DNA of 24,962 bases, taken from positions 1-24,962 of the IMG/VR virus record IMGVR_UViG_3300017978_000113. One strand, given 5' to 3'. Both the position numbers and the translations under genes were made by a program. How positions within the stretch are numbered: position 1 is the stretch's first letter; each line of letters starts with the position of its first letter. Under the pieces are notes generated by a model that had not been told where the DNA came from, made no database searches, and saw only the letters and a list, made by a program, of their open reading frames with translations. This DNA comes from a virus (Duplodnaviria > Caudoviricetes). Positions 2,490 through 23,930 of the stretch are shown here, piece after piece.

Positions 2490-2541
2490 AAAAAAACCCT
2501 CGCAAATCCGTAGTCTCTCACTTCTACTTCATTACAAGGGT
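2490..2541 (-). terminator. extended terminator-like hairpin in the leader of the replication operon
   Basis: RNA ACCCUUGUAA/UUGCGAGGGU 10-bp stem, internal loop, GUAG/CUAC stem, then U7; G-U pairs form only on the minus strand. Confidence 0.7.
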
Positions 2542-2584
2542 CAATAATACCTTAAGGACTTATAATGTGAGAGAAGTCCGTGTA

Positions 2585-2618
2585 CAAATATAAACGTAAT
2601 TACTCTAATAAAGTTGCA
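2585..2618 (-). promoter_or_regulatory. overlapping promoters: ECF-type TGCAAC-N16-CGTTTA and Bacteroidota sigma70 -7 box TATATTTG
   Basis: minus strand TGCAAC TTTATTAGAGTAATTA CGTTTATATTTG; no good -33 TTG for the sigma70 box. Confidence 0.6.
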
Positions 2619-3287: not shown

Positions 3288-3606
3288 ATTCGTAAAAATT
3301 ATTGTGTATAATCTTATCTAATTGCTCAATCATTTCATCAAACAGGAATCCTTCTTCTCTTCTCATATGTTCGATTTGTGATAATAGCCAATTCTCATAT
3401 TGCTTACTTGTTTCCATTTGATGAATGCCATCCTTTTCTTCAATCCACCATTCTGCTTTTTTGATATTAATATCTAACTCAAGCCATTCGAAATCGTGTT
3501 TTCCTGCAGTTTCAGTCCAAAACCACCAATCACAAATAACATAAAAAATAACATCGCCTCGTTCGTAAGATATCCACATTTCATTTTTGTTGTATTCGAT
3601 TTCCAT
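3277..3606 (-). CDS. acidic Trp-rich early hypothetical protein
   Basis: 109-aa ORF in a tightly packed operon, A-rich start context AAAAACTAAACGCTATG. Confidence 0.75.
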   Translation of the reverse strand: MEIEYNKNEMWISYERGDVIFYVICDWWFWTETAGKHDFEWLELDINIKKAEWWIEEKDGIHQMETSKQYENWLLSQIEHMRREEGFLFDEMIEQLDKIIHNNFYEYGI

Positions 3607-3611
3607 AGCGT

Positions 3612-3806
3612 TTAGTTTTTAGTAAATAGTTTTCCGTATTTCTCTAATACAGGCGATTGAACGTGCTTAGTTTCAATTACAGGCTCTTCATTCGTTTCTA
3701 CATAGTTTGGTTGTGTAAAGGTAAAATAACCGATTACGGTAAAGATTAAGGACAATGCGAAGATTGTTCCGATGATGTCTTTTTGTGTTTCGTTTAAATT
3801 TTTCAT
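3612..3806 (-). CDS. small single-pass membrane protein
   Basis: hydrophobic IIGTIFALSLIFTVIGYFTF segment; ATGA coupling with upstream ORF. Confidence 0.75.
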   Translation of the reverse strand: MKNLNETQKDIIGTIFALSLIFTVIGYFTFTQPNYVETNEEPVIETKHVQSPVLEKYGKLFTKN

Positions 3807-3967
3807 AGTCCTAAGTTTTTAATTAATTTAGTAATAGTTGCTAATCGTGTACCTGCTGATTCAGTAGCTGAATCGTTCATACCGAATGTTTCAAACATCT
3901 CCATATATTCCTTGAATAATACTTCGTGTTCCTGTAAAATCAAATCAATCATTTCTTGTTTTTTCAT
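3803..3967 (-). CDS. first gene of the early operon, hypothetical (54 aa, not in ORF track)
   Basis: MKKQEMIDLILQEHEVLFKEYMEMFETFGMNDSATESAGTRLATITKLIKNLGL*; just downstream of a consensus promoter. Confidence 0.75.
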   Translation of the reverse strand: MKKQEMIDLILQEHEVLFKEYMEMFETFGMNDSATESAGTRLATITKLIKNLGL

Positions 3968-4001
3968 AGCTTTTAATTTTTGTTTGTGAACTAATTATAT
4001 G

Positions 4002-4031
4002 CAAATATAGAAATAAGGTTTCAATTATCAA
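4002..4031 (-). promoter_or_regulatory. Bacteroidota sigma70 promoter (early)
   Basis: minus strand TTG-N19-TATATTTG, an exact match to the Flavobacterium/Bacteroides TTG-N19-TAnnTTTG consensus. Confidence 0.8.
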
Positions 4032-4093
4032 CAATTTTTTTTATCTTTTTTACATTTATTTTTAAAACGCTTGATTTTACAAGGGAAAATTTA

Positions 4094-4380
4094 TACCCGA
4101 TGAGGTACTTACGTATAGGAATTGGAGGTAAAACGTACCCGATAAGGTGTAAAATACTTAATTGTATGGAAAAGCGTATAATTTTCGTATAAATACGGAT
4201 AAATGCGTATACAAAATCCAATAAATCGAAATAGTGGCAAATGTTTGTGATAAAAATGTCCAGTAAATTGTCACAAAAACTGGACAAATATGTTACAGAA
4301 TGTCTCAAATATCTGCTAAATATGCGACACAATTATTTGTAAAAGTGTGACACTTGCTATTTATTAAGGGTATATCCTTA
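4094..4380. repeat. non-coding array of short direct and inverted repeats
   Basis: TACCCGATRAGGTR at 4094 and 4136, GCGTATA x2, interlocked inverted repeats 4244-4286, TGTnnCA-like heptamers about 11 bp apart, AAGTGTGACACTT, TAAGG-N6-CCTTA. Confidence 0.65.
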
Positions 4381-4412
4381 CAAAGGGGTGTTCGCTTTAA
4401 GATTATAGCCAT

Positions 4413-4450
4413 AAAAAAAAGGAGCATCGCTTTCAACTGACACTCCTTTT
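4413..4450 (-). terminator. intrinsic terminator ending the late/lysis region
   Basis: GGAGUGUC/GAUGCUCC stem followed by U8. Confidence 0.85.
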
Positions 4451-4472
4451 AAAAACTAAAAGCTATGATTAG
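4413..4472 (-). ncRNA. candidate ~60-nt antisense sRNA (or 3'UTR element) targeting early-gene start regions
   Basis: TACATTTG box at 4475-4482, then UCAUAGCUUUUAGUUUUU (4468-4451) complementary to starts at 3967, 3806 and 3606, then a terminator. Confidence 0.55.
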
Positions 4473-4482
4473 TGCAAATGTA

Positions 4483-5520
4483 CTAAAATATATGTGAAAT
4501 CCTACACACTTGACCGTGTTCTTTGTGATGTATGAATCCTTCAACTGCCTTAGGGTTGTGTTGGTATCCATTTCTATGATGCCAGGAATCAGTTCCTGAA
4601 GGTGAACGTAGTGATTCAACTGTTACTCCAATGTAATCTTTTGAAGTTTTATGGTGAACGTGGTGCGTGTACACATAACGATGCTTAGATAAACTCCATT
4701 CGTGTGAAAACTCAGTTGCCATCAATAAAGGAAGGTCAGCGTGCTTTGCTCCATCACCGTGTGTAGTTCCGATTAGATTCTTTCCGTATAAAAATCCTTT
4801 GCGGTGAGCGATAGAACAATCAAAAGTGATATTATCACAATCTTTAAACCACGTTTGTATAACATCTGCAAGGAAGAATCCGTGTGTGTAGTCGTGATTA
4901 GATGGATTGAAAGTAAAATGCACATCAGCGACAGATAGCAAAGTTTCCAAAATGTCAACATATAAACGTTTTGCGATTAGAAAATTAGAGTACCACATTC
5001 CATCTGTATCCTGTGGAGTGCCTGAAGTGGTTTGTCTTTTAGGAGTATCAATGTGTAAAATGTCGTTTCCTCCTATGAATAGAATCTTATCAATGTTAAA
5101 TCCTGTGCATTTATCTAAGATGCCTTGAACGCCTTCTTTAACACGTTTAACTGCGATTTGGTTGTTGTAATCTTCACCTGTTTCAAATGCTTCACATAGC
5201 TTTCCGATGTGTACGTCTGCAGGGTCAATCACTAACAAGTGTCCATCTGTGGATGGATTACGAAAAATAGTTGGGTATTCTGGTTTGAAATCACGGATGT
5301 CTTTTATGATTGCTTCCTGTAATTCCTTGTAGTTTGTTTCCTCTGATTCTTTGAAGTTTGGATTCTTAAAGAATAGTGATGCGTTTTTGGATTTTAGCCA
5401 TCCGTGTTTTACATCCTTGTCATCTAATCCAAGCCCATTGGATTCGAGTTTAATTGCTCTGTAAGACTGCAAGATTTCAATTTCGTCCTCTTGTAGTCTA
5501 AAGCGAGTTTGCTTGTTCAT
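4483..5520 (-). CDS. calcineurin-like metallophosphoesterase
   Basis: ordered motifs DVHIG, GGNDILH, SNHD, HGD, HHVHH. Confidence 0.85.
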   Translation of the reverse strand: MNKQTRFRLQEDEIEILQSYRAIKLESNGLGLDDKDVKHGWLKSKNASLFFKNPNFKESEETNYKELQEAIIKDIRDFKPEYPTIFRNPSTDGHLLVIDPADVHIGKLCEAFETGEDYNNQIAVKRVKEGVQGILDKCTGFNIDKILFIGGNDILHIDTPKRQTTSGTPQDTDGMWYSNFLIAKRLYVDILETLLSVADVHFTFNPSNHDYTHGFFLADVIQTWFKDCDNITFDCSIAHRKGFLYGKNLIGTTHGDGAKHADLPLLMATEFSHEWSLSKHRYVYTHHVHHKTSKDYIGVTVESLRSPSGTDSWHHRNGYQHNPKAVEGFIHHKEHGQVCRISHIF

Positions 5521-8664: not shown

Positions 8665-10442
8665 TATTTCCCGTATGTTTTATTTGTTGGTAAAAAGCCA
8701 TTGTAAGGCATATCAACAGGTCTTTGTGAAACTAAAGCGTTGTTCTTAATTGTATATCCGAATTTCTCAGCTTTCTTTCCTGCAATCTGTTTTGCTTTAG
8801 GTGAGTTAACATCTATTCCACGTCCTTCAAAATTAGCATACACTTGCTTGTTCCATCTGTGGTGACAATTTCCTCCTCCTTTGTACTTCCAAATGTCGTA
8901 CTGATTAGCACCTTTTGCTCCCCATCCTTCATTTACTGTTTGGTTATTCATTCTCAAGATATCCTCTTTGCGGTAAATCTTGTTAGCAGACATCATCTTT
9001 TGACAAAATGGACGTGACTTAGCAGACGTTTCACCTGCGTAAACATAGCGTGTAATGAATCTGATTCCATCAATATCTTCATCCTGCTCTGATTTAGCAT
9101 TAGGATTAGCAGTACCTGTGGAAACAAAGTTGTATATCTTGCTTAATAAAGACGTTTTAGGCTCGTTTAAGAGCATTTCGTTCTCTGCGTCATCATTATC
9201 ATAGTCAACTGCAAATTCGTCTATTAGAAGCCAATCTGCATTTGGTGATTCACCTAAGTCAATCAATGCTTGTGCTACTTCGTTATCCATTGCACTTAAC
9301 TCAGTTCCATCTGTACCTGTTTCTTCAGCAATTTGCTCTTCAGTTTGTGCGTTCTCTAAATCAACGAATTCCAAAGGTTGTAATGTACGGAAATATAGTT
9401 TCAATGAGATTCCGTTTACTGCTAAGATTGCATCAAATGCTTCTAACAATTCCTCCTGCATTGGACGAATCACCATATTATCAAATAAGATAGCAGAGTT
9501 TTTAAGTTCATCTGCATTGCTTGAGAATCCATTTGATGAAGCAACTCCAAATAACAAAGGAGAAGTCACGTTATGACCTAACATAATCTTACGTAAACAT
9601 TCTTCAGATAAGTATGTGTAATGCTCAGGTGCATCGTTTAATGGAATATCTTCAACTGTTGTTTTGGATTCAGCATTGTCATTGAAAGCAACGATTACTT
9701 TTTGCCCTCGTGAACCTGTTAGCTTGTTTAATACCTTAGATGTTATGATTGATTGTTGCTCTTCAGTAGGAACTCCATTGTTGAAGTTGACTACTTTAGT
9801 TCCTGAGAATCCGTTTTGTACTTCATTAATCAAGTAATCAGCTATTTCCTCCTCCAAAAGTGCATATGGAAGTGCCCCTTGATAGTCAGGATAAGCATAG
9901 TATTTCATTCCAACTGCATAAGGCTTAGAGAATAGAATCTCTACCTTTTCTTTTGAGTATCCAAATGCAGGAATGCGTTTTGGTTCGAACTTTTTAGTGT
10001 CACTCCAATCATCAGAGTAGTAATACGCCTCAATTTCTCCATCTTTATTGCACTTCTCAGCACGTAGTAAGTTCACAGGCATATGATAAGCCTTTAAAAT
10101 CTTATCGTGTTTATCATTGTAGTGTACCTGAATAGCGAATTGCCCTAACATTTTTCTGTCAAGTACCATTTTACGCACACAATCCTTGTTGAATAAACTC
10201 ATCATTTGAGCATACTCATTTGGCTTGCGATTAGCATCTAATGCACTAAGTCCTTTACCGTAAACTAAGCGTGAAATATTATTAATGATTGCTGAGTTCG
10301 TTGTGGAGTTCGTGTATCTGTCTATAAGGAAAGAATAGAAATCGTTCGAATCACCAAAATCCACCCAATTATCACGCTTGGATTCTTGGATTGTGGGAGT
10401 TGTATAAGCACTTAGACTTAATATGTGTACGTTATCACTCAT
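8664..10442 (-). CDS. portal protein with C-terminal Cys/His (minor head protein-like) extension
   Basis: about 360-aa portal-like N-part (YYAYPDY, NGFSG, IMLGHNVTSPLLFG, VIRPMQ), acidic linker, then SRPFC..KGGGNCHHRW. Confidence 0.75.
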   Translation of the reverse strand: MSDNVHILSLSAYTTPTIQESKRDNWVDFGDSNDFYSFLIDRYTNSTTNSAIINNISRLVYGKGLSALDANRKPNEYAQMMSLFNKDCVRKMVLDRKMLGQFAIQVHYNDKHDKILKAYHMPVNLLRAEKCNKDGEIEAYYYSDDWSDTKKFEPKRIPAFGYSKEKVEILFSKPYAVGMKYYAYPDYQGALPYALLEEEIADYLINEVQNGFSGTKVVNFNNGVPTEEQQSIITSKVLNKLTGSRGQKVIVAFNDNAESKTTVEDIPLNDAPEHYTYLSEECLRKIMLGHNVTSPLLFGVASSNGFSSNADELKNSAILFDNMVIRPMQEELLEAFDAILAVNGISLKLYFRTLQPLEFVDLENAQTEEQIAEETGTDGTELSAMDNEVAQALIDLGESPNADWLLIDEFAVDYDNDDAENEMLLNEPKTSLLSKIYNFVSTGTANPNAKSEQDEDIDGIRFITRYVYAGETSAKSRPFCQKMMSANKIYRKEDILRMNNQTVNEGWGAKGANQYDIWKYKGGGNCHHRWNKQVYANFEGRGIDVNSPKAKQIAGKKAEKFGYTIKNNALVSQRPVDMPYNGFLPTNKTYGK

Positions 10443-10801: not shown

Positions 10802-10830
10802 AAATAGAAAAGGGAAGCCGAAGCCTCCCT
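10801..10830 (-). terminator. intrinsic terminator after tail tube gene
   Basis: AGGGAGGC-UUCG-GCUUCCCU then UUUCUAUUUU. Confidence 0.85.
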
Positions 10831-10854
10831 AATCACGCTATGAAAAAGTATAGA

Positions 10855-22314: not shown

Positions 22315-23494
22315 AGTTCTTTTTTAATCCTAAGGTTTCCATCTCGTGATACCTGAGTGCATCAATAGCGTGATTGAAGTGGTCAATAGGTACGTTCTTT
22401 CTTGTACCGTCTTTTGCTACATCCCAACAGTAACTTCTCAACTCCTTAATCAAGTTCTGGCTATCTGCAGTGACTAAGTATTCTTGACGTTGCATAATGT
22501 CAATACCGAATCTAATTGAATCTACTCCCTTTGTTACGCCCTTAATCATTTTGCCGAATCTTCTAATCTCTTCTATTGATTTAGGTTCTGAACTATCAGC
22601 GTAAATCGGTACACTATTTGGGAGCATATTTGCGATGTCAGAGTTAACCATTCCTGTACGGTAGACTACCTCGTTTACTATTCGTTGACCGTTGTAGTTG
22701 TATATCTCAATGATTGATGTAGGGTCATTCGTGTAACCAAAATCCAGTCCTATTCCAATCAACTTAGCTTCGGTTGGTATCTTGTCGATTGATTTCCAAT
22801 TGTCAAAGATTACGCCTTCTAAACTACCTACTTCTCCTAATCCATACACACGCCACCAATTCGCCCAATAAGAACTCGTTGCTGCTTTCTCACGGTTCTT
22901 TTCAATCTGAGATACAATTGATTCATCAAGTGCTTCGTTGTCCTTGTATGTTAAGATAATGAAATCTGAATCAGGTTCGTCTTTTAGTTCCTTATGTACC
23001 CAGAATTCATTGGCTGGATTAAAGTCAAGGAATACTTCCTTTTTTGTACGGATGGCTAACTCATTGTAGGATTCAAAAGTTACGTTGTTGCACTCATTGA
23101 TGTAAAGGATGTCACGCCTTGCTCCTCTGAGTTTAGATGCATCATCTGCTGAGAAGAACTCTATTACACTACCGTTTCCAAATTCGTATCTTAGAAGTGA
23201 TTTATTGAATCGGTCATCTATGTAGCGTCCTGTCCATCTCATTATCTTTGTGAAGTCTTTTAATGCTCCTCTTCGTAAGTGAGGAATGGATTCAGCTACA
23301 ACAGAAACTTCTAATCCAGGTTGACGTGTGCATTTGTCTATTAAAATTGGCAGTATGCCAAATGTTTTACCAACATTATCTCCCCCTGTTACTTAATTCG
23401 CAGGGGGATAAAAGGCGGACGTTCCACCCTGAACGATTTTGATTCGTTTTTTCAAGGCGTGAATGCGTCTGATTGCAGTCGTTACTTTAAACAT
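22292..23494 (-). CDS. terL: terminase large subunit (PBSX-like), interrupted by a 42-nt insertion with in-frame TAA
   Basis: ATG 23494 overlaps terS stop; IVQGGTSA[insert]GKTFG Walker A, LRGARRDILYINE Walker B, DFNP, GLDFG and NHAIDALRY nuclease motifs; the ORF-track 316 aa is only the C-terminal part. Confidence 0.9.
23372..23413 (-). other. 42-nt hairpin insertion in TerL Walker A
   Basis: UUUUA-UCCCCCUG-CGAAUUAAGUAA-CAGGGGGA-GAUAAUGUU between GCC (Ala27) and GGU (Gly). Confidence 0.85.
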
Positions 23495-23930
23495 TACTTT
23501 CTTCTTTATCTTCTGATGAGTTAAAATCAAACAATGGTTGCTCTGTTACAATAGTGTTTTCTACCTTCTCAGTTAATCCGTTTAATCGTGCAGTAAGACT
23601 TGCATTGTATTGTCCAACCATACCTCCTGAGATTTGGTCTTGTCTGATTTCTCGCTTTATGTGTGTAGAGATATCGCAAAAATCTTGGTAAGCTCCTTTA
23701 GTATTATGTAAATAATGTTCAACAGTGCATTCAAATTTGTTGTAGCAATACACTTCAAAGCCATCAATGCTGAGTGGACATTCTAAGGGTTCTGCAACCA
23801 TATCTCCTGAGCGTTGGTTCATTACGTATTTGTAACGTGGATTTTCTTTTACATACTCCTTGTATGCTTTGAACATATCTAATAGTTGTTCAGGTGTGTC
23901 TATCTTTCTTGGTCTTCCTCTTTGTGCCAT
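23487..23930 (-). CDS. terS: terminase small subunit (P22 gp3-like)
   Basis: GRPRKIDTPEQL, PLSIDGF, GGMVGQYNASLTARLNGL; directly upstream of terL. Confidence 0.8.
   Translation of the reverse strand: MAQRGRPRKIDTPEQLLDMFKAYKEYVKENPRYKYVMNQRSGDMVAEPLECPLSIDGFEVYCYNKFECTVEHYLHNTKGAYQDFCDISTHIKREIRQDQISGGMVGQYNASLTARLNGLTEKVENTIVTEQPLFDFNSSEDKEESNV

Follow-up and report, generated by a model that had tools for sequence, protein, structure and literature searches.

Does the short stretch that follows the phosphoesterase gene of this phage encode a small RNA, and with which mRNA starts would such an RNA pair? The window analyzed here is the whole stretch of 24,962 nt, a virus record that CheckV rated 82% complete, with about 5–6 kb of the phage missing. 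The initial annotation, made from the sequence alone, had placed at positions 4413–4482 a candidate antisense RNA that would silence the first three early genes and possibly host mRNAs with similar starts. Nearly all genes of the window lie on the minus strand; they include terminase, portal, amidase, and phosphoesterase genes, and the phosphoesterase gene is followed by early genes of small size and by genes for replication and for a helicase-like protein. The TAnnTTTG promoters, the A-rich translation starts, and the nearest cultured relatives, which are Nonlabens and Flavobacterium phages, indicate that the host probably belongs to the phylum Bacteroidota. These cultured relatives are distant (36.5% for the portal of Nonlabens phage P12024S/L and about 60% for the phosphoesterase of Flavobacterium phages), and an exact search of metagenome contigs for the window's seed, aimed at a complete copy of the phage, returned 0 matches.

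A promoter box, a U-rich seed, and a terminator follow the phosphoesterase gene

The last gene before the RNA unit encodes a phosphoesterase or DNA repair exonuclease-like protein (4483–5520, minus strand; PHROG 704, E = 5e-72), and its stop codon occupies 4485–4483. Directly 3′ of this stop, at 4475–4482 of the minus strand, lies TACATTTG, a −7 box of the Bacteroidota sigma-ABfr type, which fits the TAnnTTTG consensus given in PMC7366714. No TTG occurs at −33 in the window, and among 50 units, 25 have a TTG at a spacer of 22–23 nt. Judged from the box offset, the predicted small RNA would be about 58 nt long (4413–4470, minus strand), with a putative 5′ end at 4470 and a 3′ end in the U tract; in viral copies of FopS, the same spacing from the box leads to the known 5′ end. 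The predicted fold of the 58-nt RNA consists of an open 5′ seed followed by the terminator. The U-rich seed (4450–4470, minus strand), antisense to an A-rich leader plus AUG, is mostly single stranded by predicted accessibility and cofolding, with unpaired probabilities of 0.59–1.0 over the first 20 bases. It contains the core UCAUAG (4463–4468, minus strand), which is the complement of CUAUGA. The intrinsic terminator (4413–4449, minus strand), assigned from folds and conservation, comprises a hairpin at 4449–4418 and a tail of 8 U's at 4420–4413, and it likely also ends the late/lysis operon. The −7 box, the U-rich stretch, and the terminator were thus found where the initial annotation had put them. 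The hairpin is a good one of unexceptional stability (−13 to −15 kcal; z = −1.6 for the fold), and a simple terminator scan of the window did not pick it up.

A second UCAUAG core with a terminator, having no promoter box, lies at 10808–10854 (minus strand) in the 3′ UTR of a 180-aa structural gene. At this place in the family of the 180-aa gene, a terminator was present in 22 of 23 members and the core in about half of them.

Other noncoding features were observed as well. Between the RNA unit and the early-operon TAnnTTTG promoter, which lies at 4002–4009 (minus strand), 42 nt ahead of the ORF 3967 start, the stretch 4060–4410 is noncoding and carries short direct and inverted repeats; it may serve in packaging or mark a genome end. 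A separate promoter box, a structured RNA of about 90 nt, and a terminator precede the replication gene 2471, at 2490–2592 (minus strand). The 5′ hairpin loop of this RNA is complementary to a stretch within its terminator loop, and the loop and the complementary stretch co-vary in the relatives G011, G030, G031, and G033. The RNA, which had no Rfam match, looks like an attenuator or a pseudoknot.

The unit is conserved in relatives and its hairpin favors the minus strand

Eighty viral loci with the phosphoesterase gene were taken, and 75 of them had enough downstream DNA for counting. A terminator unit was found right after the phosphoesterase stop in 53 of the 75 relatives, and among these 53 the promoter box and CATAG were each present in 49. 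Beyond these 53, in L112 and L141, the unit follows an inserted gene yet retains its promoter. A 219-aa gene was likewise seen between the phosphoesterase gene and the unit in L003 and L026, where the unit also has its own promoter. RNAalifold on a MAFFT alignment of the units predicted no pairs, because the stems were out of register in that alignment, and a helix set by hand across the units was 72.6% paired. Since alignment-based folding gave no usable pairing, the support for the terminator comes from per-sequence folds. In 54 of 54 units, folding of the sense strand gave the more stable hairpin, with means of −14.4 kcal versus −7.5 kcal on the opposite strand.

The strand preference bears on a reading that the initial annotation had itself raised, namely that the segment does no more than provide the start of a plus-strand mini-ORF, which is 10 aa long in the window. 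The plus strand does read as an A-rich leader and then ATG. In relatives, however, the equivalent ORFs are 1–73 aa long in shifting frames, four units lack the core that would supply the ATG, no plus-strand TAnnTTTG occurs between 2166 and 7996, and the hairpin and U tail favor the minus strand in every unit. The mini-ORF, conserved in neither length, frame, nor ATG and having no promoter, was therefore largely refuted, and we consider it extremely improbable that the unit is merely its start.

A motif scan returned 118 viral matches, 95 of them with a hairpin (64 distinct), downstream of several unrelated genes. Eight control hexamers gave 25 hairpins in total (10 distinct) in 29 of the 64 parts of the collection, or about 7 per hexamer after scaling; the motif-versus-control ratio is inflated by kin, because the core had been picked from the family itself. 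When a second promoter variant was used, 42 of 120 matches had a hairpin, true FopS copies among them. Matches in the bacterial genome scan were mostly due to chance: a hairpin accompanied 20 of 120, 15 of those being Bacteroidota by title, and at least one match (L287) resembled FopS at 49.3 bits. Five Bacteroidota genomes had 1–3 motif matches apiece.

Units composed of a promoter, a U-rich stretch, and a terminator but having no core were also seen, in L319 and L323 of the control scan and after the holin gene of the cultured Nonlabens phage P12024S (L440, about 10170–10240; no UCAUAG). In two other records, G017 (L459, 6960–7080) and G008 (L447, near 8341), promoter–seed–terminator units coincide exactly, in antisense, with the start of a real neighboring gene; the one in G017 lies between a gene that by reading has an SSB-like acidic tail and an exonuclease-like gene. 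These two forms indicate that units can arise from gene starts, and they give a sequence-based hint that the unit may have originated as a cis-antisense RNA.

The seed is complementary to three early-gene starts in the window

Three minus-strand sites in the window pair with the seed. They are the starts of ORF 3967, the first early gene (54 aa; 3964–3981, 17 Watson-Crick pairs and one G-U, −20.6 kcal/mol), ORF 3606 (109 aa; 3604–3621, 17 of 18 positions paired, −19.0 kcal/mol), and ORF 3806 (64 aa; 3803–3822, 16 Watson-Crick pairs, two G-U, and two mismatches, −14.4 kcal/mol). Direct reading bore out all coordinates and pair counts that had been given for these pairings, and the net cofold energies with ORFs 3967, 3806, and 3606 were −19.8, −13.5, and −18.3 kcal, respectively. 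The three starts are the best seed sites across the entire minus strand, and the fourth-best of 40 start regions is that of the terminase small subunit gene (23487–23930, minus strand; −12.3 kcal/mol). None of 5000 base-shuffled seeds, with a mean of −15.0, matched the summed duplex energy of −54.0. The only 22-mers of the window that beat the seed were exact complements of two of its targets. Thus, the observation that the seed is complementary to three early starts was confirmed.

Across relatives, own seeds paired at −12 kcal or better with the ORF 3967 family in 19 of 23 loci, with a covariation z of −3.0; with the ORF 3806 family in 12 of 25 loci, where no covariation was found; and with the third-position gene in 6 of 26 loci. 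Duplexes of 17–18 bp are peculiar to the window, and no relative reaches −17. The ORF 3606 start ranks 2–3 for the seed in G019 and G020 and 8 in G032, this site being kept in the closest relatives only. The three early-gene targets initially proposed therefore held for ORF 3967, held in part for ORF 3806, and mostly failed for ORF 3606. Covariation between seeds and early starts was seen within clade A, in which seeds fit their own early starts over foreign ones (p = 0.0002, or 0.0004 minus the window); neither the comparison within clade B (p = 0.84) nor that between 13 clades (p = 0.17) was significant.

Host mRNAs as further targets were unsupported. Of 338 Flavobacterium starts, used as a proxy host sample, one reached −14.4 with the window seed, nine reached −12.2, and none reached −19.

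The recombinase start is the best co-evolving target in relatives

Every called start in 34 whole records was ranked for the record's own seed, and the top rank fell repeatedly on a gene 0.6–7.6 kb downstream that was identified as ERF or RecT. The unit and a recombinase-like gene were both present in 25 records, with 21 ERF, 2 RecT, and 2 members of the unnamed PHROG 19042, which was joined to the ERF family by BLAST single-linkage; no recombinase-like match was found in nine of the records, nor in the window. The recombinase test did not include P12024S, whose unit has no core and whose ERF start ranks 10 of 60. With the own seed, the recombinase start, among 20–67 starts, ranked first in 15 of the 25 records, in the top 2 in 20, and in the top 7 in all 25, whereas its median ranks were 3–48 with foreign seeds and 7.5–44.5 with shuffled seeds. 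With row and column effects removed, own pairs had an advantage of 5.0 kcal (p = 3e-5 by genome and p = 0.002 over six clades); the own-versus-foreign covariation had a p of 0.0005 in clade A and was not significant in clade B (p = 0.18). Among 42 gene families, each present in at least nine records, the recombinase was an outlier (z −7.7, median rank 1), and the runners-up were the terminase small subunit (z −3.5, median rank 12.5) and the ORF 3967 family (z −3.0, rank 3). Furthermore, when 12 disjoint nearest-neighbor genome pairs were compared, own beat swapped combinations in 9 of the 10 informative pairs (p = 0.011), and the disjoint-pair test over 34 families again put the recombinase first and the ORF 3967 family second. 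Similar seeds match similar leaders even on nonhomologous ERF and RecT genes (G011–G013).

Because the recombinase idea had come from these first records, the 25-record set, of which six rank-1 genes had served as BLAST queries, later samples were tested. One was drawn from 80 ERF-anchored loci, 40 of which had at least 4.5 kb upstream; 17 of these carried the unit (15 distinct, representing about four lineages). The ERF start ranked first in 8 of the 15 and in the top 3 in 13 (expected 0.5 and 1.6), with p = 3e-5 for own versus foreign. In two lineages, the core had changed from UCAUAG to UCAUAA, while the ERF start had changed from CUAUG to UUAUG. By the strict rule, 23 of the 40 loci lacked the unit: four of them have a promoter-less version, seven, with at least 6.5 kb upstream, have neither a unit nor CUAUG at the ERF start, and 12 were possibly cut short, a recheck of three finding nothing. 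The other sample took the window's last full gene as its anchor and comprised 80 loci, from which 28 loci without recombinase, 35 without unit, and three duplicates were excluded, leaving 14 distinct testable units. The recombinase start was first in 4 of the 14 and in the top 3 in 9 (expected 0.7 and 2.0), and this count retains three poor ranks, two from units downstream of the gene and one from a probably mis-called start. One contig is common to both later samples, and these samples include near-identical lineages.

In 16 of 26 records, a TAnnTTTG of its own precedes the recombinase gene at a distance of no more than 75 nt; in most cases it lies some 30 nt ahead of the AUG, so that the entire leader of the gene would be about as long as the seed. 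More generally, 32 of 105 top-3 targets were promoter-proximal, versus 94 of 1436 other starts. For the promoter-less second unit, the recombinase start was the best pairing in three of five records of clade B (−20 to −24 kcal) and had a median rank of 20 over all records.

The window ends short of its own recombinase gene, which in the closest relatives lies 5.4–6.4 kb from the unit; this explains why the initial annotation missed it. For the same reason, the recombinase as a target in the window phage is judged from its relatives, to whose ERF start the window seed pairs at only −12.2 kcal. In many relatives the pairing is no stronger than −11 to −14 kcal, an energy that 0–8% of proxy host starts reach too.

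These results weigh on two alternative readings. The initial one, in which a general anti-start RNA acts chiefly on the first three early genes and on host mRNAs with similar starts, would account for the three long duplexes of the window and for the own-seed fit in clade A, but the long pairing is confined to the window, the third-gene position seldom pairs, a single proxy host start reaches −14.4, and the recombinase outranks the early genes; we regard this reading as unlikely. It is quite unlikely that the unit is an ordinary late terminator with a left-over inverted gene start, which would have no pairing role and whose matches would reflect the start style of the lineage. Each seed's reverse complement does resemble a typical Bacteroidota start region, and the G008 and G017 units do lie exactly antisense to real neighboring starts. 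Start style, however, should lift all families, whereas z −3 is passed by just three of the 42, namely the recombinase, the terminase small subunit, and ORF 3967, and a neutral remnant would not be expected to keep the core in 49 of 53 relatives or to follow the changes of the ERF start.

A proposed mode of action

Taken as a whole, the unit is conserved and probably a functional antisense RNA gene, similar in kind to FopS and GibS. It would likely function as a trans-acting phage antisense RNA of about 58 bases that blocks translation of the leading gene in each early operon. The initial idea of an antisense RNA unit over start codons agrees with the conserved promoter, seed, and directional terminator, with silencing as the predicted effect. 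From the observed anatomy, conservation, complementarity, and seed-target covariation, we infer the following course of transcription, repression, and polarity. Host RNA polymerase would make the RNA from its own −7 box, a host-type promoter, and read-through of the late operon would supply more of it as the 3′ end of that transcript. The seed would then cover the short A-rich leader and the AUG, and translation of the first cistron would be blocked; according to PMC7366714, initiation in Bacteroidota uses A-rich positions upstream of the AUG. The genes blocked would be ORF 3967 here and, judging from relatives, the recombinase (ERF/RecT), with possible polarity on the genes downstream in both early operons. 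The likeliest purpose would be to limit the early and recombination genes at first and to turn them off as late transcription increases, which we propose for phages in which no protein repressor was found. A search for integrase or CI/Cro-type Pfam matches gave none among the 54 proteins of G020, a complete close relative, and none among the 29 searched of the 52 G026 proteins. This fits RNA-based control, without proving the lifestyle.

The same RNA and targets could instead act constitutively, quieting the phage in a carrier state or excluding related phages and thus standing in for a repressor protein. The housekeeping type of the promoter, the missing integrase and CI/Cro-type matches, and the ability of seeds to pair with starts of related phages are all in keeping with such a role. 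Nothing points to lysogeny or a plasmid state, however, and the unit's place as the last element of the late operon, together with the promoter-less copy in a late 3′ UTR, suggests late accumulation, so that we hold constitutive action to be improbable. Returning to late shutdown of early genes, a broader generalization seems to us evenly balanced between right and wrong: a widespread class of Bacteroidota-phage sRNAs may mask the Shine-Dalgarno-less starts of the recombination module and the first early operon, with the seed being re-tuned whenever the recombinase leader or family (ERF, RecT) is swapped, in an all-RNA early-to-late switch that needs no repressor.

To our knowledge, the target has been defined for few of the phage sRNAs that act in trans. 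Here, natural compensatory changes point to one specific mRNA. Such a system would show how an RNA regulates starts that have no Shine-Dalgarno sequence, and it would suggest post-transcriptional control of the dose of a phage recombinase.

Comparison with known base-pairing RNAs

P22 sar, which is cis-antisense, P1 c4, and P4 CI are phage-encoded base-pairing RNAs. Lambda OOP, PreS, and VP882 VpdS are described as base-pairing RNAs that control phage or host mRNAs in bioRxiv 10.1101/2024.10.31.621285. By the same source, OOP acts as a cis-antisense RNA, whereas the unit pairs in trans with sites that lie 0.4 to 8 kb away; no conserved opposite-strand gene of the OOP arrangement was found at the unit locus. 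PreS, as described there, acts mainly on host genes. All of the phage systems named here are proteobacterial, whereas the unit pairs with Shine-Dalgarno-less starts and has the recombinase as its best partner. A literature search at title level returned no such RNA for a Bacteroidota phage or for a phage recombinase.

Rfam searches above the cut-off gave no match in the window, 6 relatives, or 14 bacterial loci, and matches at E up to 5 were at chance level only. GibS (RF04182; PMC7366714, with the oligo in PMC11697453) resembles the unit in a 5′ end with the same core and in a long AU-rich seed over start codons. It differs in a 142-position model, two seeds, a noncanonical promoter, and chromosomal metabolic targets, and the GibS model had no match in window positions 3500–5000 at E up to 5; the predicted RNA here, 58 nt long, also lacks the second seed R2.

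FopS, a set of paralogous sRNAs of B. thetaiotaomicron (RF04319; PMC11697453), comes closest. PMC11697453 describes an expressed RNA that binds RbpB and represses translation of the first genes of operons. From that description, FopS and the unit have in common a sigma-ABfr promoter, a predicted single-stranded 5′ seed, a terminator hairpin, a UCAUAG-type core, pairing over the start of an operon's first gene (in silico for the unit), and several copies, one of them 3′ UTR-derived. The window and 49 of the 53 relatives have the canonical promoter as TAnnTTTG, and both in silico partners, ORF 3967 and the recombinase, are promoter-proximal. The same core occurs in GibS and in many FopS copies, as read from the fopS and GibS oligos and the Rfam FopS consensus. 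The only match of the FopS model in the window at E up to 10 is this unit, which at 12.6 bits (E = 0.39) falls below the gathering cut-off of 56; the best of four relatives scored 21.5 bits, and the positive control L594 scored 69.4 bits. The conserved R1/R1′ seed of FopS is absent, and just the UCAUAG core and U-richness are held in common. FopS-type copies were seen in the viral contigs L502, L517, L546, and L594, the last being above the Rfam cut-off and adjoining a tRNA, so that some of these copies may be prophage edges or host DNA. One Caudovirales phage is said in PMC11697453 to carry a FopS sequence, and the present unit bears on the idea, put forward there, that phages spread FopS-like RNAs. 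The two kinds of RNA differ in their seeds: that of FopS, by the same account, is nearly uniform and targets host polysaccharide-utilization (PUL/susC) mRNAs, whereas that of the unit is variable beyond the core and tracks phage genes. By its sequence, then, the unit would act in the manner of FopS and GibS but belongs outside the FopS family.
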